A stretch of 23,896 bases of DNA, the filler included, from an uncultured virus (IMG/VR IMGVR_UViG_2124908030_000002) (Duplodnaviria > Heunggongvirae > Uroviricota > Caudoviricetes > Thumleimavirales > Hafunaviridae). It is 4 parts of one record of this genome, joined end to end, with 100 filler letters (N's around TTAATTAATTAA, not from the genome) between each part and the next. Parts side by side here need not be neighbours in the genome. Positions count along the whole stretch, not along the records: positions 2,890 to 22,705 come from IMGVR_UViG_2124908030_000002; 3 more parts are not named here. One strand, 5' to 3'. The notes under the pieces are model-generated. The model worked only from the letters and a program-made list of their open reading frames with translations, was not told where the DNA came from and searched no databases. Positions within the stretch are counted from its first letter, which is position 1; each line of letters begins with the position of its first letter. A program made the translations under genes and the position numbers. Shown here piece after piece: positions 5,921 to 22,805 of the stretch.

Positions 5921-6194
5921 CTCGTACCTCGTCTGCTGTCTTCTTTCCATCAACCACGTCAGCAAGCGTTCCAAGATACTCAACGACAGCACGGTTCTCC
6001 GCTTCGTCCTGCTTGGTGTGCTTACGCATCTCTTCTGCCAGCTGACGGGCCTCGTATGCGGTGTAGACCGCAGTTTTCTCACCGATGTCAACTTCCACCA
6101 ACCGCTCGTTGTCGGTGATGCCCACGGTGAGCGACCCGACCTTCCCGGTGAGAATAGCTGTGCTAACCTCTTTCTGAAGCTCTGTCTCGTACAT
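5913..6194 (-). CDS. hypothetical protein (93 aa)
   Basis: Acidic ORF; first gene downstream of hammerhead A. Confidence 0.75.
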   Translation of the reverse strand: MYETELQKEVSTAILTGKVGSLTVGITDNERLVEVDIGEKTAVYTAYEARQLAEEMRKHTKQDEAENRAVVEYLGTLADVVDGKKTADEVRDE

Positions 6195-6221
6195 ACTGTC
6201 TTGCTCTTGTGATTCCCATTA

Positions 6222-6289
6222 AGTCATAGGCTCTTCAGGGGAAGGGCGACTAGCTCCCTCCCGAGGGGCGCGGCGCCCCTTTCGCCCGT
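6222..6289 (-). ncRNA. type II hammerhead ribozyme A
   Basis: GGGC-GAAA-GGGGCG(CCG)CGCCCC-UC^-GGGAGGG(AGCUAGUCGC)CCUUCCC-CUGAAGA-GCCU-AUGACU; complete core; predicted cut at 6263/6262. Confidence 0.92.
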
Positions 6290-6462
6290 NNNNNNNNNNN
6301 NNNNNNNNNGTGGCTGACGTTACTTCAGCCCATCTACACTCTTCACGGAAGATTGCCGCTCCGTCTTCCATGATTGGGCTGTCTTCTGTTGGCCTCCACT
6401 CGTGGTCGTGAGTGTTTATCGGGTCGGGGTCTGGCGGGGAAGTCGGCGGCCCCGAGAATCCT

Positions 6463-7100: not shown

Positions 7101-7423
7101 GAATCAAAGTCTACGTACTCTGCTTTGTCTGTGGTTATTTTGGTCCCCGTTTTTCGGACTTCGACTGTCTCTTCTACCTCTCGCGTCGAGAATGGCTTGA
7201 AGAAGACAGCAATAACTCCTTCATCTGTGAGCTTGTTTTCTGGCTGGACTGCTGAAATGAGGAACCCACACTCTAGAGCCTCTGCTCCGAGAGAGTGATG
7301 ATGGGGGAACCCATCTTCAGCAAACTCGATACAGCAACAAGTTCGGGTTCTAGTATCTTCTACCACAGTTCCGGACTGGTTCTCGAACGTATCTACCAGC
7401 TCGTAAAATTTTGATTTATTCAT
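7097..7423 (-). CDS. hypothetical protein (108 aa), present only in copy 2
   Basis: ORF overlaps both neighbours; more AT-rich codons. Confidence 0.75.
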   Translation of the reverse strand: MNKSKFYELVDTFENQSGTVVEDTRTRTCCCIEFAEDGFPHHHSLGAEALECGFLISAVQPENKLTDEGVIAVFFKPFSTREVEETVEVRKTGTKITTDKAEYVDFDS

Positions 7424-7535: not shown

Positions 7536-7555
7536 NNNNNNNNNNNNNNNNNNNN

Positions 7556-8289
7556 ACCTCGTCTTCGAGGTCCACATCCCCGACGTGACGGATGGTCTTC
7601 TTCTCGGTGATGCTCCTGATGGAGTTGTCACACCGGGTGTCCTGAGCGAAGCCCTCGAAGTACAGGGCTTGCGACCCGAAGAAGTCGTAGCCGGTCCTGA
7701 TACCGAGAACGAGCGGGTCGGTGCCGCTGTCGTCGTCGGTGTAGTCGATGTTGAAGGCATCGAAGAGGATGTCCATGTGGACTTCCCCGCCGCCCTTGTA
7801 CTGCCGAATCTCCCCGAACACATCGTCGCCGTAACCCTCGTCACGGATGGCCTCTTCGAGCGGTTCGTAGGCCGTCATGGGGTTGACGATGCTGTACGAC
7901 TTGCTCGGGACGTGCCAGAGCGCATCTTCGTTCGGAGTGTCGTCGGGGTTCAGCCACTCCCGAAGCTTGTCGGGGGAGTAGATGGACTGGAAGCGGTCAG
8001 TCTCAACGAAGACCGTCCGGTCGTTGACCCGGTGAAAGTCCACCCCGTCAGGTGCCCGGTTCCGAAGCGGCCCGTCGTTCAGGTTTTGGGCCACGTCTTC
8101 CGGCATCTTCCACGCGAGGCCGCCCTGCTCGGCCTGTTCTAACTCTCGAATCGCCGCTGCCATCGAGGTGTCGGGAGGGTTCTCGGCATCCATCCCGGCG
8201 ATGCTGGCCGCTGTGTCACCCATCTCGGTGTTGTTATGGGTGGTCAATCCTGCGAACTGCGTCGTCGTGTCGGCGGTGTTCTGGCGCAT
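7556..8289 (-). CDS. DUF932/DUF945-like phage protein (3' truncated by gap)
   Basis: PSKSYSIVNP, GYDFFGS and C-x-N...IRHVG pattern typical of the family. Confidence 0.6.
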
Positions 8290-8330
8290 GGTGTGTCTCG
8301 TTTTATATCATGGCGTCGAGGTGACGCTGA

Positions 8331-8371
8331 AAGGGCGGAGAGGAATCGAACCTCTCGGAACCACTCACCCT
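8331..8371 (-). ncRNA. mini-tRNA (t-element) 1
   Basis: AGGGUG-AGUGGUUCC-GAGAGG(UUCGAUU)CCUCUC-CGCCCU: 6-bp acceptor plus 6-bp T-stem with canonical T-loop; no D or anticodon arm. Confidence 0.8.
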
Positions 8372-8391
8372 AACATTCAAAGCCCTACGCC

Positions 8392-9878: not shown

Positions 9879-10390
9879 CAGTTGGCACCTCCCACATAAT
9901 GGGAAACTGAACTTTGGGCAATCCCAAGGACGTTACTAATCTCGGTCTGAGGTAGGTCTTCGTTGTGGTAAAGTTCCATCATCAATAGCTCGTCGGTGAA
10001 GGTCGTTTTCTTTTGATGGTGCGCCCGGTGTTCACCCTCTCCCATCAGCTTGATGTTCGAGGGGCGGTTGTCCCACGGAAGCTCGTTCTGGTGGTGAACA
10101 TCTTTGCCCACTACTGCGTCGAACCCAAACTCACAGACCGCAAGAAGCCTGTGGTGGAAAAAATGGCTGCCGTCAACGTTGAACATCTCGTACCCATCAC
10201 TACTGACATGAAGGGACGGGTGGCCGTACTGGTTGCGAGCAGCTTCCTTCGGACTGCGGGTTTCGACCCCTGCGTCAGCCATCCACCGGGCAACGGTCTT
10301 GCTGACCACATCGCATTTTTCACCGATTTCTGCTTGTGTCATCCCTTCGTCATGGTACAGCCGACGAAGCTCCGACTCTTCAAGAGGCAT
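9878..10390 (-). CDS. HNH homing-type endonuclease with flanking HTH motifs
   Basis: HHRLLA...DVHHQNELPWDNRPSNI...EHRAHH; HTH-like segments at both ends (MTQAEIGEKCDV; LPQTEISNVLGIAQSSVS). Confidence 0.88.
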   Translation of the reverse strand: MPLEESELRRLYHDEGMTQAEIGEKCDVVSKTVARWMADAGVETRSPKEAARNQYGHPSLHVSSDGYEMFNVDGSHFFHHRLLAVCEFGFDAVVGKDVHHQNELPWDNRPSNIKLMGEGEHRAHHQKKTTFTDELLMMELYHNEDLPQTEISNVLGIAQSSVSHYVGGAN

Positions 10391-10521
10391 TACTCTTCAC
10401 CCCCCTGTCGCCAACTCACCGCTGAGTAGAATCTACCCATTATAGCACCGAGGTCGTCAGTTTCGTATGTTTGGCGCAACGTCTCAACGTGTCCGTCATC
10501 GCTAAATTCTACTGATTCCAT
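10390..10521 (-). CDS. hypothetical protein (43 aa)
   Basis: MESVEFSDDG...; TAATG overlap with the HNH gene; first ATG after hammerhead B. Confidence 0.6.
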   Translation of the reverse strand: MESVEFSDDGHVETLRQTYETDDLGAIMGRFYSAVSWRQGGEE

Positions 10522-10538: not shown

Positions 10539-10606
10539 CGGTCTGGCTCGTCAGGGAGATGGCGACCAGCACACCTCCGACGAGGGGCGACCCCTCGTTT
10601 CGCCGT
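10539..10606 (-). ncRNA. type II hammerhead ribozyme B
   Basis: GGC-GAAA-CGAGGGG(UCG)CCCCUCG-UC^-GGAGGUG(UGCUGGUCGC)CAUCUCC-CUGACGA-GCC-AGACCG; predicted cut at 10579/10578. Confidence 0.92.
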
Positions 10607-10631
10607 TGACTTGAAGCTCGGGCTTTGAGTC

Positions 10632-12782: not shown

Positions 12783-15573
12783 GACACTCCTCCTTTGTCA
12801 GCTCTGATGGGTCGATGCCTTTCTCGTGGAAGCCGAGAAGCATCTGGCCTGTCCATGTATCTCGGCGGTGGTTATCATCGAACAAATCGTACACGTCGCT
12901 GTCGTCATCCCAATTTGGGGTGTCAGCCATCAGCCGGTAGCGTTTCGAGCTGCCTTCCAGATGACCATCTTTGAGCGACGGCTTGTGGTTGGGACTGTAG
13001 CGAGTCAACCGTGCGATGATGATGCTTGCCTGATGTATCCTTGACCCCACACCGTCCGTCTTGATGTTCTTGAAGGCCCACCGCGCTCTTTTCAGCACTT
13101 TGTCACAGACAACAGCGAAGAGGGTGTCGTGCTTGTCGTCGTCGGGAACGTTGCCTTTGTCGTCGCTACGGTAGCCGCCGTCGTAGTCATCGAGTAGTTT
13201 GGCCCACTCAATCTGGTCACGGAAGTCTTCGGCGTAGAAGTTCCGGAGCTTTTCAAAGTCATCTCCGAGCAGCTTCACTACTTCGCGGTCATCACTCGGC
13301 CGGTGAGCCATAACCACCATCCGGTCGTCGTCGTACAGCTCTTCAGGAGTCATGGCACCGTCTTCTGTGGCTATTAGTGCTGACGAGGACCACTCGGTGT
13401 ATTCCATGTAAGTGACTACATCATCATAGTCTTCAAGCTCGGACAGTTGAGACTTTGTGACGCAGACAATAGCGGCGTAGTATGCCATGTCGTAGTGGTC
13501 GCTGATGTTCGGGCCGTCGCCCTGAGTGAAGACCATCAACGTGTCTTTGCCGTGGAAGTTGCCGTGCCCTTCCAGCTTTCGCTTCACCTCTTTCATGGTG
13601 AGCCGCTGGTCGATGGAGCTACTATCGGAGCTGGTGCGGAGCTTCAGCTTGTCCGGGTCTTTCTTCTTCGTTGTCTTCGTGTGCTTCTGGTGGATGTCGT
13701 TCGGAACATCCCAACTGTGGTCGTCGTCCTGCTTGACAGGAACGTTCTTCACGACGTTGAAACCGAAGGCATCACCCCAAGCATCGTACTTGCTGGCACC
13801 GTTGATTTTGATTACCTCTGCGTCAGGGTTGTTGTGGCGAAGGACTTTGAAGCGGTCGGTGAAGTTACCGCCTGTCGAAGCTGCCATGTAGACGTTATCG
13901 CAGTCTTCTATGTCTGTCAGGAACGCCCCTAGTCTCTTACTCTTCCGGTTCCGACTGCTGCTAGACCGACCGGGGCCGTTGTAGCAGTACTCAATTTCTG
14001 AGAACAGAGCGTACATCTGGTTCAGAGTATCGTCAGATGTTACGTCGAAGTGGTCGTCGCCTGAGATGAAGTTACGGAACTTCCTTCGTTTTTCTGTCGC
14101 CTTGTACGGGCCGTGCTTTGACACCATCTTCGAGAAGATTTTCCACGAGCTTCTGTCACCGATAAGGGCGCTGCCGGGGTGACTGCCCGACTTCATCTCT
14201 TCTACGACAGCCCGGAGCTGTTTCTTCTCTTCTTCGATGGCCAACGACTGAACGTACTCGAAGAACTGTTTCTGCTCGGAGTCTTTCTTCAGGCTGTCAC
14301 GGGAGCCGGTAGGCTGCGGGAGCATCACGTCGTCGTCGTGTAGCTCCCCGATGACGTTGTTTTTCTCGTTCGTCTCGAAGAGTCGCTGTCCGTCAGAGTA
14401 CCGGCCCCGGTTCGGCCCGTGAACAATCCGGCCTTGTTCGTCCTGAATCTGAATCACTTCGTCCCACAGGGTGCTGAACCGGACTGATGTGTTCCGGTCA
14501 ATAGCCATCGACACCATGAAGGTGTCTTCGTCGTCGGCATGGTAGCCGGTGTCAATAACATCAGGACCGGAGACGAGGGAAAACTCACCGGGACGCTCAA
14601 CCACAATCGGTGGGTCGCCGTACTCTTCAACGAAGTTGCTGGCCTCGTACTCTTCTTCGACCGGGGTGGTCCCGGCGTCGTGTTCTCGGTAGAGAAGCGG
14701 GACACGAAGTTGCTCGGTGTAGTCTTCGACCCATGACTGAAGCTTCGAGAGACTGAACGAATCTTGAACCGGCATCGAGAACCGGGTGCCGTAGAAGTTT
14801 TCTTCTACCTCACCACAGAGTGCGTTAGCACCACCGAGGTAGGAGTAAGCCCGGAAGCCGGGGTGGTCGCCGGGCTGCCGGCTTCGGGTGTCAATTTCTG
14901 CTCCGGCTCCATGCTTGCCGTGAACTAGGGCCGACGACTCTGAACCGATACCGAACATCCCACCGGAGCCGCCGTCAACACCGGAGCCGGACTGGAAGAT
15001 GGTGTTGAAGGCGTCGTCAAACTGTGCCGGGGTCATGCCGATGCCGTTGTCTTCGGTGACTATCTTCCGCTCATCGAGGTACACATCCCACACTATCGTC
15101 GGGTCGTAACCGAGGTTCCGTGAAGCTTCAAGGACTTCATCGATGGGCCGGGGAATCTCTATCCGGCGGAAGTCTGACGGGTCGCTGTCGCCATCATCGA
15201 GCGCGTTCTCGGCGACAGTCTCCCCGGTTTCAGCATCGACCAGAAGGCTCTGTGTGAGCCACCCGTCGTCGTACCGTTCGGAGAGCTGAATCAGGAGCTT
15301 CGAGGCTCGGAAGCAGGCAGCTTCCTCGTTCTGAAGCCACTCTCGAACCCATGCCGAGTCATGCTCGTAGATGAAGTCAGACAGGAACTCTCCGGCACCG
15401 CTCTCTGTCTGTGTCTTCAGGGCTTCGTCACCCGTCTCTTGAACGAGAGGGTGGTCTTCGCCAGCCACACCGAGCTGCTTCACGTCGTTGGTGTCGGGGC
15501 CTGAAAGGACAGGGGGAACGGAAGGGTCACGGCTCTGTTCGTCGGTCGTCGGAAGGTCGATGTTCTCACTCAT
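12769..15573 (-). CDS. GHKL (Hsp90/MutL-type) ATPase-domain protein, rIIA-like architecture
   Basis: Bergerat-fold motifs REWLQN, EDNGIGM, GGMFGIG and GTRF in the N-terminal third, followed by a long unassigned C-terminal region. Confidence 0.85.
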   Translation of the reverse strand: MSENIDLPTTDEQSRDPSVPPVLSGPDTNDVKQLGVAGEDHPLVQETGDEALKTQTESGAGEFLSDFIYEHDSAWVREWLQNEEAACFRASKLLIQLSERYDDGWLTQSLLVDAETGETVAENALDDGDSDPSDFRRIEIPRPIDEVLEASRNLGYDPTIVWDVYLDERKIVTEDNGIGMTPAQFDDAFNTIFQSGSGVDGGSGGMFGIGSESSALVHGKHGAGAEIDTRSRQPGDHPGFRAYSYLGGANALCGEVEENFYGTRFSMPVQDSFSLSKLQSWVEDYTEQLRVPLLYREHDAGTTPVEEEYEASNFVEEYGDPPIVVERPGEFSLVSGPDVIDTGYHADDEDTFMVSMAIDRNTSVRFSTLWDEVIQIQDEQGRIVHGPNRGRYSDGQRLFETNEKNNVIGELHDDDVMLPQPTGSRDSLKKDSEQKQFFEYVQSLAIEEEKKQLRAVVEEMKSGSHPGSALIGDRSSWKIFSKMVSKHGPYKATEKRRKFRNFISGDDHFDVTSDDTLNQMYALFSEIEYCYNGPGRSSSSRNRKSKRLGAFLTDIEDCDNVYMAASTGGNFTDRFKVLRHNNPDAEVIKINGASKYDAWGDAFGFNVVKNVPVKQDDDHSWDVPNDIHQKHTKTTKKKDPDKLKLRTSSDSSSIDQRLTMKEVKRKLEGHGNFHGKDTLMVFTQGDGPNISDHYDMAYYAAIVCVTKSQLSELEDYDDVVTYMEYTEWSSSALIATEDGAMTPEELYDDDRMVVMAHRPSDDREVVKLLGDDFEKLRNFYAEDFRDQIEWAKLLDDYDGGYRSDDKGNVPDDDKHDTLFAVVCDKVLKRARWAFKNIKTDGVGSRIHQASIIIARLTRYSPNHKPSLKDGHLEGSSKRYRLMADTPNWDDDSDVYDLFDDNHRRDTWTGQMLLGFHEKGIDPSELTKEECRDFL

Positions 15574-15713
15574 CTGAGGTCAACAAGGTCGGTTGTTTTC
15601 ATGTCGCTGCTGATGAAGGCTCTCGGGTTGCCTTCTTCCTGAACGCTGTATCTGCTCGAATACTCACTCCACGTTACTTGTGGGGACAGCTCTGGTGGGT
15701 TCTCTTCGTTCAT
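15570..15713 (-). CDS. hypothetical protein (47 aa)
   Basis: MNEENPPELSPQVTWSEY...; ATGA overlaps at both ends; conserved in copy 2. Confidence 0.7.
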   Translation of the reverse strand: MNEENPPELSPQVTWSEYSSRYSVQEEGNPRAFISSDMKTTDLVDLR

Positions 15714-16232
15714 ATTCCGTAGTCTATCGCCGGGTTGTCTTCTATACACCGTCTTGTGNNNNNNNNNNNNNNNNNNNNNNNNNNNNNNNNNNNNNNNNNN
15801 NNNNNNNNNNNNNNNNNNNNNNNNNNNNNNNNNNNNNNNNNNNNNNNNNNNNNNNNNNNNNNNNNNNNNNNNNNNNNNNNNNNNNNNNNNNNNNNNNNNN
15901 NNNNNNNNNNNNNNNNNNNNNNNNNNNNNNNNNNNNNNNNNNNNNNNNNNNNNNNNNNNNNNNNNNNNNNNNNNNNNNNNNNNNNNNNNNNNNNNNNNNN
16001 NNNNNNNNNNNNNNNNNNNNNNNNNNNNNNNNNNNNNNNNNNNNNNNNNNNNNNNNNNNNNNNNNNNNNNNNNNNNNNNNNNNNNNNNNNNNNNNNNNNN
16101 NNNNNNNNNNNNNNNNNNNNNNNNNNNNNNNNNNNNNNNNNNNNNNNNNNNNNNNNNNNNNNNNNNNNNNNNNNNNNNNNNNNNNNNNNNNNNNNNNNNN
16201 NNNNNNNNNNNNNNNNNNNNNNNNNNNNNNNN

Positions 16233-16903
16233 CCCGGAGCCATGCTTGCCGTGAACGAGGGCTGCGACTCTGAGCAGACACCGAACATCCCACCGGAGCC
16301 ACCGTCAACACCGGAGCCAGAGCTGAAGATGGTGTTGAAGGCTTCGTCAAACTCACGAGGAGTCATGCCGATGCCGTTGTCTTCGGTGACTATCTTCCGC
16401 TCATCGAGGTACACATCCCACACTATCGTCGGGTCGTAACCGAGGTTTCGTGAGGCTTCGAGGACTTCATCGATGGGCCGGGGAATCTCTATCTGGCGGA
16501 AGTCTGACGGGTCGCTGTCGCCATCATCGAGCGCGTTCTCGGCGACAGTCTCCCCGGTTTCAGCATCGACCAGAAGGCTCTGTGTGAGCCACCCGTCGTC
16601 GTACCTCTCGGAGAGCTGAATCAGGAGCTTCGAGGCTCGGAAGCAAGCAGATTCCTCGTTCTGAAGCCACTCTCGAACCCATGCCGAGTCATGCTCGTAG
16701 ATGAAGTCAGCCAGAAACTCTCCGGCACCGCTCTCTGTCTGAGTCTTCAGGGCTTCGTCACCCGTCTCTTGAACGAGGGGGTGGTCTTCGCCAGCCACAC
16801 CGAGCTGCTTCACGTCGTTGGTGTCGGGGCCTGAAAGGACTGGGGGAGCGGAATGGTCACGGCTCTGTTCGTCGGTCGTCGGAAGGTCGATGTTCTCACT
16901 CAT
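16233..16903 (-). CDS. GHKL ATPase protein, second variant (3' part in gap)
   Basis: Near-identical to 14903-15573 (offset 1330), with synonymous and a few non-synonymous changes. Confidence 0.85.
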
Positions 16904-17040
16904 CTGAGGTCAACAAGGTCGGTTGTTTTCATGTCGCTGCTGATGAAGGCTCTCGGGTTGCCTTCCTCCTGAACGCTGTATCTGCTCGAATACTCACTCC
17001 ACGTTACTTGTGGGGACAACTCTGGGGTTTCTTCTGTCAT
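16900..17040 (-). CDS. hypothetical protein (46 aa; variant of 15570-15713)
   Basis: MTEETPELSPQVTWSEY...; its ATG lies in the 3' tail of hammerhead C. Confidence 0.7.
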   Translation of the reverse strand: MTEETPELSPQVTWSEYSSRYSVQEEGNPRAFISSDMKTTDLVDLR

Positions 17041-17097
17041 GCTCATCAGGGAAGGGACGACACTCCCTCCCGACAGGGCCGGTCCCTGTTTCGCCAT
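17035..17097 (-). ncRNA. type II hammerhead ribozyme C
   Basis: AUGGC-GAAA-CAGGG(ACCGG)CCCUG-UC^-GGGAGGGA(GUGUCG)UCCCUUCC-CUGAUGA-GC-AUGACA; predicted cut at 17072/17071. Confidence 0.92.
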
Positions 17098-17181
17098 TTA
17101 GGGACTTTTCCCCATTATGACATACTTTTCTTCGTTTTCTTCCATCACTTCCTTTGAAAGTCTAAGAAATCTCTTGTTCAT
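17098..17181 (-). CDS. putative 27-aa peptide
   Basis: MNKRFLRLSKEVMEENEEKYVIMGKSP*; TGATG overlap upstream; stop directly abuts hammerhead C. Confidence 0.45.
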   Translation of the reverse strand: MNKRFLRLSKEVMEENEEKYVIMGKSP

Positions 17182-17690
17182 CAAATCCCTAACGCTGAAG
17201 CCTGCTCTTCTTCATCTACGACCCACTCTTCATCTTCCACATCGAGAACCCGGCCAGTCTCGAAGACAACTTCAGTCTCGTCTCGGACTTCGGTGATGCC
17301 GTAGATGCTTTCTTCTTCACCTTTGATGTAGGTCTTAAGTGAAGTAACATCAAGACTTTCATCACAACTCGGAGTGGTACACTTTGCCCGGCCTTTGGCG
17401 TAGCAACTGGTGTCGTTGATAAGAAGCCCCGACCTCGTTCTGATGGCCTCGATGTGACGGTAGTGCTTCAGCTTCCCTCTGCCATCAGGGTACTGAAGCC
17501 CGACGAGGTTCTTCGTTGAGGTGTAGAGCTTCACCGCATCCCCTGAAGTTGAGTGAGTTGGAAGGGCACCGTCTCCCCATTTCCGAGCAACTTCAGGTTG
17601 GTTCCCTGTTGCGCTGCTTACTTCATGATACACATCTGCCGGGTACTCTTCACCGTTCTCTGCTTGAATCGTACTTTGTTGTAGACTCAT
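17181..17690 (-). CDS. hypothetical protein (169 aa)
   Basis: Acidic ORF preceded by GGAGG. Confidence 0.8.
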   Translation of the reverse strand: MSLQQSTIQAENGEEYPADVYHEVSSATGNQPEVARKWGDGALPTHSTSGDAVKLYTSTKNLVGLQYPDGRGKLKHYRHIEAIRTRSGLLINDTSCYAKGRAKCTTPSCDESLDVTSLKTYIKGEEESIYGITEVRDETEVVFETGRVLDVEDEEWVVDEEEQASALGI

Positions 17691-17901
17691 CGTAGCCTCC
17701 GTATAACATCAGCAACTACCAACACTATCCTTTCAACCATAGTAGGGACGAGGGGGTTCTCGGTTTCAGCTTCTTCATTAACCGCATTAGGTTCATCCCT
17801 ATTGCTGTTATGTTGTATATATTATTACAACTATTGTTTGAACTACCATCGTCTATACTACCTTCTGTTTCCGTATCGATGAAGTCGTATGAATCGTTCA
17901 T
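17687..17901 (-). pseudogene. small AT-rich gene with a 2-nt frameshift in an (AT)n run
   Basis: Removing one AT near 17820 gives a 70-aa acidic ORF with ATGA overlaps at both ends. Confidence 0.55.
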
Positions 17902-18116
17902 TTTTCCACCAGAAGAACAAACTCTCCTTGGGTGCTGGCATGGGACTTTCCGGCCCACTTGAAATCATCCCTGAAGTGTTCAAGCCACGTCACTCTGATG
18001 TGCTGGACTCCGTTGTATGGGGCCGGAATGACGTAGTAGTCGATACCGGGAATGTCGGACTCTCTAACCGCAGCGATACCATCGAACTGTCGTAGTTCTT
18101 CAACAGGCTCACTCAT
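17898..18116 (-). CDS. hypothetical protein (72 aa)
   Basis: MSEPVEELR...; coupled start. Confidence 0.7.
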   Translation of the reverse strand: MSEPVEELRQFDGIAAVRESDIPGIDYYVIPAPYNGVQHIRVTWLEHFRDDFKWAGKSHASTQGEFVLLVEK

Positions 18117-18285
18117 TTTCTTCAGCCTCCTCTGCCGCAATCTCCACCAGCTCCTTCAGTTCATCCTGAGCATCTTCGAGCCGCTGAAGCTCTTCTCGTG
18201 GAAGGGAGTTCCACAAGATGGACAGCCCTTCGATGTATTCGTTCCACCGTTCTTCAAATTCTTCGCGGTTATCTGCTTGGGGCAT
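18109..18285 (-). CDS. hypothetical acidic helical protein (58 aa)
   Basis: MPQADNREE...; TAATG overlap. Confidence 0.7.
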   Translation of the reverse strand: MPQADNREEFEERWNEYIEGLSILWNSLPREELQRLEDAQDELKELVEIAAEEAEENE

Positions 18286-18806
18286 TAGAATCCTTCTCCG
18301 TCGATGTTTGCCATCCGCTGCGACTCTGTTTGCCACTCGCTCCGTGACTGAACCATCCTACTTCCTCCGTTAATGTTAGTGAAGGTGAAGGTCAGGGCCT
18401 CCATGTTAGTTTCTTCATCGTCCATCATCGGCCCTCCGTCAGCTTCTCCCCAAGCAATCTTTATGCCGTTCTCGTCTCCGGTAAGGCTGAACAGCTCCGC
18501 GAAAGCCATGAAGTTTGATGCTTCAGTCCACGTCAGGAAGAAGTGGTCGATGCCCACACTTCGCCGGTCCTTTGTTGTCTTCGTCATACGAACACCGTAG
18601 ATGGTGGTCTTGACTCTGGCGTTGACGTTTTCCTCGGGGTTCTCGGGTTCAACCGAGAAGTAGCAGCGAAGCGTCTGGTTCTCTGCGTCGTGAACCAGAT
18701 GGATGTAGTCACCGACGCCCTCTGATTCGAGGTTGACCCACTCACTAAGCGGGACTCTATCTACTACGTTATGCCCGTCGTCTTCGGCGTTCATGGTTTC
18801 ACTCAT
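18285..18806 (-). CDS. hypothetical protein (173 aa)
   Basis: MSETMNAED...; first gene after orphan RNA motif copy 1. Confidence 0.8.
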   Translation of the reverse strand: MSETMNAEDDGHNVVDRVPLSEWVNLESEGVGDYIHLVHDAENQTLRCYFSVEPENPEENVNARVKTTIYGVRMTKTTKDRRSVGIDHFFLTWTEASNFMAFAELFSLTGDENGIKIAWGEADGGPMMDDEETNMEALTFTFTNINGGSRMVQSRSEWQTESQRMANIDGEGF

Positions 18807-18825
18807 GGTTTCTCCGTTCCGCTGT

Positions 18826-18882
18826 CGCACCGCAGAGGGTAGTTCGGTCATGAGCCGAGGGGTCGTCAACCACCTACCCTAA
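18826..18882 (-). ncRNA. unassigned repeated structured RNA motif, copy 1
   Basis: AGGGUAG-GUGG(UUGACGA)CCC-CUCGG(CUCAUGA)CCGAA-CUACCCU-CUGCGGUGCG; homologous to 20712-20769. Confidence 0.7.
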
Positions 18883-18900
18883 CAATAGAAGCCTGTTGAC

Positions 18901-19086
18901 TTAACTCTTTGCTATCGCCTCGGAGGGGAACGCCGACCAGACCGCCGAGTTGGGGGCCTCGACCACCTTCCCGGTGTCTTTCAGTCGGATTTCGTAGTCT
19001 CTGCCGGACGACACGACCTCTCCCTCATGGGTCCCATCACCGGGAAGGTCAACGTAACAGAAGTCACCCTCTACGGGTCGAATCAT
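18901..19086 (-). CDS. small beta-rich hypothetical protein (61 aa)
   Basis: ATGA overlap and GGAGG upstream. Confidence 0.7.
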   Translation of the reverse strand: MIRPVEGDFCYVDLPGDGTHEGEVVSSGRDYEIRLKDTGKVVEAPNSAVWSAFPSEAIAKS

Positions 19087-22705: not shown

Positions 22706-22749
22706 NNNNNNNNNNNNNNNNNNNNNNNNNNNNNNNNNNNNNNNNNNNN

Positions 22750-22761
22750 TTAATTAATTAA
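22750..22761. other. artificial contig linker TTAATTAATTAA
   Basis: Six-frame stop linker flanked by N runs. Confidence 0.97.
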
Positions 22762-22805
22762 NNNNNNNNNNNNNNNNNNNNNNNNNNNNNNNNNNNNNNN
22801 NNNNN

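Follow-up and report, generated by a model that had tools for sequence, protein, structure and literature searches.

Type II hammerhead ribozymes, in which a pseudoknot joins loop I to the 3′ tail, were described by Perreault et al. (2011; PMC3088659), and several of the hammerheads in that work flank prophage or phage genes. The same paper describes a variant hammerhead in the haloviruses HF1 and HF2, which lies 13 nt upstream of a helicase gene's start codon and has a transcript 5′ end mapped near the cut. Hammerhead motifs are also credited to the work of Sencilo et al. (2013) on halovirus genomes by another report (PMC6466107). Among RNA viruses, Lopez-Galiano et al. (2026; PMC13725137) describe a hammerhead that spans the whole 66-nt intergenic region of the fusarivirus PtFV1 and cuts 7 nt before the start of ORF2, and the paper states that self-cleavage of a hammerhead in the 5′-UTR of a chrysovirus is essential for translation initiation. 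Haloarchaea are described as translating mRNAs whose leaders have no Shine-Dalgarno sequence, with scanning excluded and the mechanism of initiation given as unknown (PMC3986360). None of the papers that our literature searches brought up describes a start codon lying within the pseudoknot of a type II hammerhead.

We analysed a stretch of 23,896 nt, called the window here. It is placed with the Hafunaviridae-like haloarchaeal tailed viruses because portal and small terminase proteins matched in PHROG mark it as a tailed virus, and because its 934-aa HSP90-like GHKL ATPase is 36–37% identical to proteins of HSTV-2, HRTV-7, HRTV-2, HRTV-11, HCTV-6, and HCTV-15. Positions 15000–19000 matched nothing among phage records by megablast. 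Separate contigs make up the window as a pseudo-molecule, joined by three linkers (44 N, TTAATTAATTAA, 44 N) at 1112–1211, 2790–2889, and 22706–22805. Additional gaps of 20, 20, and 474 N are found at 6290–6309, 7536–7555, and 15759–16232, and they are flanked by near-identical duplicates (99%, 98%, and 94.8%), which look like unmerged strain variants rather than real tandem repeats. The 474-N gap separates two copies of a small ORF together with the 5′ part of the ATPase gene.

Hammerheads were located by a motif scan and by a covariance model, R1, built from hammerheads A and C. Exactly three were found in the window, all on the minus strand, and the next R1 score (13.8 bits) belongs to a site that has no core. 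Hammerhead A (6224–6287) scores 87.3 bits and has the core CUGAAGA. Hammerhead B (10541–10606; 50.7 bits) has the core CUGACGA and a tail, AGACC, that holds no AUG; the gene ATG behind it is at 10521. Hammerhead C (17036–17097) scores 81.2 bits and is the only match above threshold when the whole window is searched with Rfam (RF02276, Hammerhead_II, 17096–17033, 38.4 bits against a gathering score of 37). Hammerheads A and B did not reach E ≤ 10 in the Rfam search, and when phage records were searched by blastn with hammerheads C and B, only chance matches came back.

We reread the minus strand from 17100 to 17032, which runs UAA-A-UGGCGAAACAGGGACCGGCCCUGUC|GGGAGGGAGUGUCGUCCCUUCCCUGAUGAGC-AUG-ACA-GAA, and the bases that the initial annotation had given for the ribozyme, its pseudoknot, and the ORF proved accurate to the base. 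All core elements of RF02276 are present (C3-U-G-A-N-G-A9, G12-A-A14, A15.1-U16.1, C17, and G10.1-C11.1), and the catalytic strands CUGAUGA (17049–17043) and GAAA (17092–17089) equal the consensus. In the Rfam alignment, hammerhead C is a three-way junction with loop-closed stems I and III and an open stem II. Stem I is formed by 17071–17064 with 17057–17050, stem III by 17089–17073, and stem II by G17094/C17093 with G17042/C17041. The cleavage triplet GUC ends at C17072. Going by the known chemistry of the family, self-cleavage would take place between C17072 and G17071 and leave 2′,3′-cyclic phosphate and 5′-OH ends, and the 3′ product would start at G17071 with the 5′-OH end and a 31-nt leader (17071–17041). 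The hairpin leader proposed earlier had these same properties and follows from hammerhead chemistry and the sequence.

The pseudoknot is formed by the loop I strand UGUCG (17058–17062, minus strand) and the 3′ tail strand UGACA (17035–17039, minus strand), the former pairing with 17039–17035. At least four pairs between loop I and the 3′ tail are expected for RF02276, and UGUCG/UGACA provides them. UGACA is nucleotides 2–6 of the downstream ORF (AUG-ACA), so the pairing of loop I with the beginning of a coding region, claimed from the start, is confirmed in the sequence. Our preferred reading, to which we give somewhat better than even credence from sequence comparison, is that hammerhead C processes RNA like any other hammerhead, that its fusion with a gene is unusually compact, and that the overlap with the start codon is a by-product.

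The junction between hammerhead and ORF is known from one contig of a draft scaffold, and no second sequence with the same junction was found. That hammerhead C is an inactive relic, or that the junction is an assembly chimera of strain variants, is in our judgment very unlikely. It is true that the window consists of joined contigs with unmerged variants around its N gaps, that stem II has only 2 bp, and that the Rfam score is scarcely above the cut-off. However, every core position equals the consensus, and type II hammerheads normally have a short stem II according to Perreault et al. (PMC3088659). The junction also lies about 800 nt inside its contig, and the letters on either side of it are unlike those of the variant copy immediately after the ATG; hence, there is no shared repeat at which a mis-joining could have occurred.

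With R1 and inspection, 12 further hammerheads were found in five related IMG/VR virus genomes (G001–G005), which gives 15 family copies with those of the window. G001, a complete virus genome, was found by a hammerhead pattern, and G002–G005 were found by alignment of three ATPase proteins. Around the ATPase module the arrangement differs between genomes: in G002 a hammerhead precedes the module, 27 nt ahead of the ATPase ATG, in G004 one precedes an unrelated 60-aa ORF, and in G001 the nearest hammerhead is two kilobases farther upstream. The hammerhead at position B, before the small gene that follows a 304-aa protein, recurs in G001, G002, G003, and G004. A conserved protein of 43–49 aa (...DLGAIMGRFYxAVSWR...) is found behind the position-B hammerhead in all five genomes (window 10390–10521; L453:8455–8595; L451:7476–7613; L452:8348–8497; L454:8635–8775), and it matches no Pfam or PHROG family.

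Other searches added little. HSTV-2 gave no hammerhead with Rfam in its 19-kb early region or with R1 in the whole record, and none was found in genome G006. Single-protein searches for related loci, with the 397-aa and 934-aa ORFs in viral contigs and with the 934-aa ORF in genome contigs, returned none. A viral scan with the tail pattern gave 48 loci, among them six family members, all from genomes already found, and a tighter hammerhead pattern found nothing in viral contigs. A loose pattern without the 5′ half of the ribozyme gave mostly chance matches in GC-rich bacteria and one true match, L204. Of the 71 loci from a metagenome scan, 11 scored as hammerheads; all are bacterial-looking and are followed by a Shine-Dalgarno-like motif and a start codon.

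Several family copies depart from the consensus core. Six have an extra U between A9 and G10.1 (CUGAUGAuGCC), one has A9 replaced by C, and two have a G10.1·U11.1 wobble. A hairpin is inserted within CUGANGA in two copies, and one copy has a stem III of about 60 nt. The core-variant copies are L452:1922–2010, L456:3224–3300, L499:310–420, three copies in L451, L454:3242–3307, L452:8245–8312, and L475.

The pseudoknot was compared in the 12 copies with an uninterrupted core, omitting the two with the core-inserted hairpin and the one with the very long stem III. The halovirus copies share the pattern NGYCG/YGRCN. Pairing is present in 56 of 60 cells, a value reached by 9 of 50,000 tail shuffles, which ignore the relatedness of the copies. 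The middle pair (position 3) is U-A in seven copies and C-G in five, and the outer pair occurs as A-U, U-A, G-C, or G·U. At the positions of ORF nucleotides 3–6 (G, A, C, A), the pseudoknot is paired in all 12 copies counted. The pair that involves the U of the start codon, formed by the loop G and the first tail letter, is the weakest (G·U in five, G-C in three, and unpaired in four). The stems covary as well: in 11 model-aligned copies, pairing holds in 95.1% of the stem cells, with changes on both sides in 10 of 17 pairs, and neither the 500 shuffles, which again ignore relatedness, nor any slid register came near these values.

Downstream of hammerhead C, the 46-codon ORF (MTEETPELSPQVTWSEYSS...; 16900–17040, minus strand) starts with the ATG at 17040–17038, within the tail of the ribozyme. 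At its other end, an ATGA motif combines its stop with the ATG, at 16903, of the ORF that follows, which encodes the HSP90-like ATPase. A second copy of the small ORF (47 codons, MNEENPPELSPQ...; 15570–15713, minus strand) is 95% identical to the first, and the stop of the ORF ahead of it shares an ATGA with its ATG. No hammerhead is present in the 45 nt that are readable upstream of the second copy. In BLAST, 16234–17040 matches 14903–15713 at 94.8%, the last aligned base being the A of the ATG. Direct alignment of the two copies likewise shows near identity 3′ of the ATG and no real similarity 5′ of it. When 5.8 billion proteins were searched with a 65-aa query, the homologues P0001 (47 aa) and P0002 (48 aa) shared the start of the 46-aa form. 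Because of the homologue starts and because the similarity of the two copies ends at the ATG, ATG 17040 is most likely the start of the 46-codon ORF and is the best-supported one at the sequence level.

There are further in-frame AUGs at 17097 and at 17046 (17046–17044), the latter inside the catalytic core. Translation could begin at one of these, in which case ribosomes would translate the uncut ribozyme as part of a series of coupled ORFs, and the frame is indeed open from 17097 to 16900, giving a 65-aa ORF; the stop-start motifs resemble those of haloarchaeal termination-reinitiation as described in PMC6728339. We regard such an upstream start as highly improbable. The 19-residue extension from 17097 is absent from P0001, P0002, and the second window copy, and the similarity between the two copies stops at 17040. 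The 27-codon ORF that would precede it in the chain belongs to a spacer with 35% GC, which does not code for protein in relatives, and by a rough estimate an open frame of 19 codons is expected by chance in about 40% of cases in GC-rich RNA. For AUG 17046 taken by itself, the sequence gives no discrimination from ATG 17040, and the two cannot be told apart.

The 46-aa ORF and the 60-aa ORF that follows the hammerhead at the equivalent position in G004 are not similar; hence, codon 2 can be compared with loop I among paralogous ribozymes only. No loci related to the small-ORF alignment were found in viral or genome contigs.

In the tail of these hammerheads, a linker ending in A is followed by Y-G-R-C-N, and an AUG results where Y is U. 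A tail AUG occurs in 6 of the 15 family copies, i.e., in 5 of the 12 with an uninterrupted core and in one of the three left out. Apart from hammerhead C, these AUGs open only 2 codons (hammerhead A of the window), 2 (G004), 10 (G003), 14 (G002), and 8 (G003). In hammerhead A, the AUG at 6227–6225 is followed by ACU and by UAA at 6221–6219, and the 93-codon ORF has its ATG at 6194. The initial annotation had read this tail as Met-Thr-stop with the real gene about 30 nt further on; this holds, the ORF start being 33 nt after that AUG. The stop in AUG-ACU-UAA or AUG-ACU-UAG is part of a CUUARGGGAC motif, which is also found behind a tail without AUG in G002. Copies with the extra U after A9 hold still more AUGs (CUGAUGAUGCC). 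Between the pseudoknot tail and the gene ATG, the motif GGGACACAACCUUCCGA is conserved in three hammerheads that precede unrelated genes (L451:819–845, L451:2793–2818, and L453:1458–1490).

The distance from the end of the model match to the gene start is 16–65 nt in the 14 other copies, whereas it is −4 in hammerhead C (the offset for the fourth G002 copy was counted by hand). The gene start thus falls within the pseudoknot in 1 of 15 family hammerheads, and the start-codon overlap is not conserved. A comparison with 31 other distinct type II hammerheads from phage and metagenome contigs points the same way: no start codon that opens an ORF is closer than +9 nt, and most are at +18 to +40, behind a GGAG-like motif. 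This set was obtained with a strict regular expression and a stem filter that also rejected hammerheads A and B; hence, it is conservative. As the sole gene-fused case of 15, hammerhead C could equally be a special case.

The initial annotation had hammerhead C filling the whole spacer from the stop codon at 17100–17098 to the ATG at 17040. Both codons are correctly placed, but the real spacer is longer. The last long gene stops at 17181, and the TAA at 17100–17098 closes merely a 27-codon ORF (17181–17098), which is probably not a gene. Because this TAA closes only 27 codons, and because the equivalent stretch in relatives is a short non-coding hairpin, we take 17180–17041 (140 nt) as the real intergenic spacer, with hammerhead C occupying its 3′ part. 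The 5′ part (17098–17180, minus strand; 83 nt, 35% GC) holds the 27-codon ORF and the inverted repeats UUAGGGA...UCCCUAA and GACUUU...AAAGUC. A candidate snoZ122 at 17192–17098 (Rfam 29.4 bits against 38) merely reflects the terminal inverted repeat of the spacer and was rejected. Across 17181–16900, stops and starts form a chain of a 169-aa ORF, TGATG, the 27-codon ORF, TAAATG, the 65-codon frame, ATGA, and the ATPase. This chain is probably due to chance; in uncut RNA it could in principle let ribosomes read through the ribozyme.

A low-GC inverted repeat with arms like AAGACUY and RAGUCUU(U) is found 0–10 nt upstream of nearly every hammerhead of the halovirus group. The sites are 17098–17192 and 10607–10631 in the window, and L451:684–753, 2657–2726, and 7298–7367, L452:1852–1921 and 8175–8244, L453:1326–1395 and 8307–8376, and L454:3172–3241 in relatives. 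The repeat matched no Rfam family and could be a promoter, a terminator, or a stabilizing hairpin.

If it were a promoter, each hammerhead would belong to a cassette transcribed from a promoter of its own within the low-GC repeat, and the ribozyme would trim a 5′-triphosphate leader rather than cut a polycistronic RNA. We consider this possible though doubtful. It would account for the closeness of the AAGACUY...RAGUCUU repeat to the hammerheads of relatives, and in several relatives an ACUUAA-like motif, read by eye, precedes the start of the ribozyme by about 30 nt. Hammerhead positions vary between related genomes, as if cassettes move, and in HF2 the transcript's 5′ end is reported to map near the cut site (PMC3088659). 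The resemblance to a TATA box was, however, judged by eye only, and the repeat would serve equally well as a terminator or stabilizing hairpin. In hammerhead C, moreover, about 55 nt separate the arms of the repeat, and 67 nt lie between the motif and the ribozyme, which fits such a cassette poorly.

Concerning the start codon itself, the initial annotation had proposed a device in which the catalytic fold hides the AUG, so that folding competes with the binding of ribosomes and translation is tied to cleavage. This would concern the 46-codon ORF and also the ATPase gene translationally coupled to it. The ribozyme, the pseudoknot, and this AUG as the likeliest start all stand. The coupling itself we consider unlikely in view of the comparison: the arrangement occurs in 1 of 15 family copies, the same ORF exists in a variant that has an ATGA stop-start overlap in place of a ribozyme, and the duplex is weak. 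Only a 4–5-bp pseudoknot covers the U and G of the start codon, and the U·G pair is the least conserved of the pseudoknot, being unpaired in 4 of 12 copies. The loop-tail duplex energies are −5.5 kcal mol−1 for hammerhead C, −4.1 for A, and −6.9 for B, values that apply to the duplex only and neither to the whole pseudoknot nor to molar salt. In the nested minimum-energy fold of the 3′ product, a model to which pseudoknot pairs are foreign, the 8-bp stem I hairpin is kept and the AUG is single-stranded. As cleavage is irreversible, competition would presumably be limited to a brief window of time.

Some features do speak for a hidden start codon. The A of the AUG faces G17095 at the end of stem II, its U pairs with G17058, and its G with C17059, and the second in-frame AUG (17046–17044) is within the catalytic core. 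High intracellular salt would stabilize the ribozyme fold. According to Perreault et al. (PMC3088659), formation of the pseudoknot does not require the other strand of the ribozyme, and it could therefore persist in the 3′ product. Some RNA viruses, in addition, are reported to need self-cleavage for translation (PMC13725137).

We return to hammerhead C as an RNA-processing ribozyme with an incidental start-codon overlap. On this reading it is one of three paralogous type II ribozymes in the leftward operon of the virus. The transcript would cut itself at C17072/G17071 and release a downstream mRNA that begins with a 5′-OH and has a 31-nt leader, in which the stem I hairpin is followed by the catalytic core strand. 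The A of the linker and the U and G of the pseudoknot often spell AUG, and in hammerhead C this AUG would have become fused in frame to an ORF. Such a compact fusion would be tolerable in haloarchaea, since their leaders do not depend on a Shine-Dalgarno sequence and scanning has been excluded (PMC3986360). Any effect of a 4–5-bp pseudoknot on initiation would probably be minor and brief. No other family copy has a stem II (2 bp) or a loop I as short as those of hammerhead C, which weighs against this explanation; its activity could differ from that of the family, although its geometry is that of the Rfam type II consensus.

A more speculative possibility, which we think improbable, is that the halovirus cassettes of low-GC repeat, ribozyme, and tail AUG are initiation modules for mRNAs without a Shine-Dalgarno sequence. 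The 5′-OH leader hairpin and the pseudoknot would then present the AUG, and in most copies a mini-ORF of 2–14 codons would pass ribosomes on to the gene, a scheme we hold with little confidence. For hammerhead C, whose gene is joined straight to the tail AUG, there is a slim chance that expression of the small ORF and of the coupled HSP90-like ATPase is governed by cleavage and by pseudoknot pairing.

With the incidental overlap as the preferred reading, hammerhead C adds to a known ribozyme family in an arrangement that is unusually compact and probably incidental. The value of the locus would then be descriptive, in that a hammerhead can adjoin a start codon flush where no Shine-Dalgarno spacer is needed. 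In addition, a family of which few archaeal examples are known gains 15 halovirus hammerheads with clear pseudoknot covariation. Should the overlap tune expression, one natural RNA strand would be both the tertiary contact of a ribozyme and an initiation codon, and it would offer a handle on start-codon choice in haloarchaeal mRNAs with leaders that have no Shine-Dalgarno sequence. The ribozyme-free natural variant of the 46-codon ORF is a ready control.

Compared with the sister halovirus copies (A, B, and the 12 in G001–G005), hammerhead C has the same stem I and loop motifs, the pseudoknot, and the upstream low-GC repeat; it differs in that the gene start of the sisters is 16–65 nt downstream (14 of 14) and their tail AUGs open 2–14 codons only. 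With the type II hammerheads of RF02276 as described by Perreault et al. (PMC3088659), it shares the core, the topology, the short open stem II, and the 4–5-bp pseudoknot right after stem II, as well as the location between phage operon genes with several copies per genome. In the bacterial phage type II copies examined, 9–94 nt separate the ribozyme from the start codon, which in most cases has a GGAG-like motif ahead of it, whereas in hammerhead C the pseudoknot strand itself supplies the start codon. Like the variant hammerhead of HF1 and HF2, it belongs to a haloarchaeal tailed virus and lies just upstream of an ORF, in their case the first ORF of a transcript whose 5′ end was mapped (PMC3088659); unlike that variant, it has a consensus core and the AUG overlap. 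The PtFV1 hammerhead likewise takes up essentially the whole spacer. It and the 5′-UTR ribozymes of RNA viruses differ from hammerhead C in being type I, in belonging to eukaryotic RNA viruses with cap-independent translation, and, as far as that report describes them, in having no loop-tail pseudoknot (PMC13725137).
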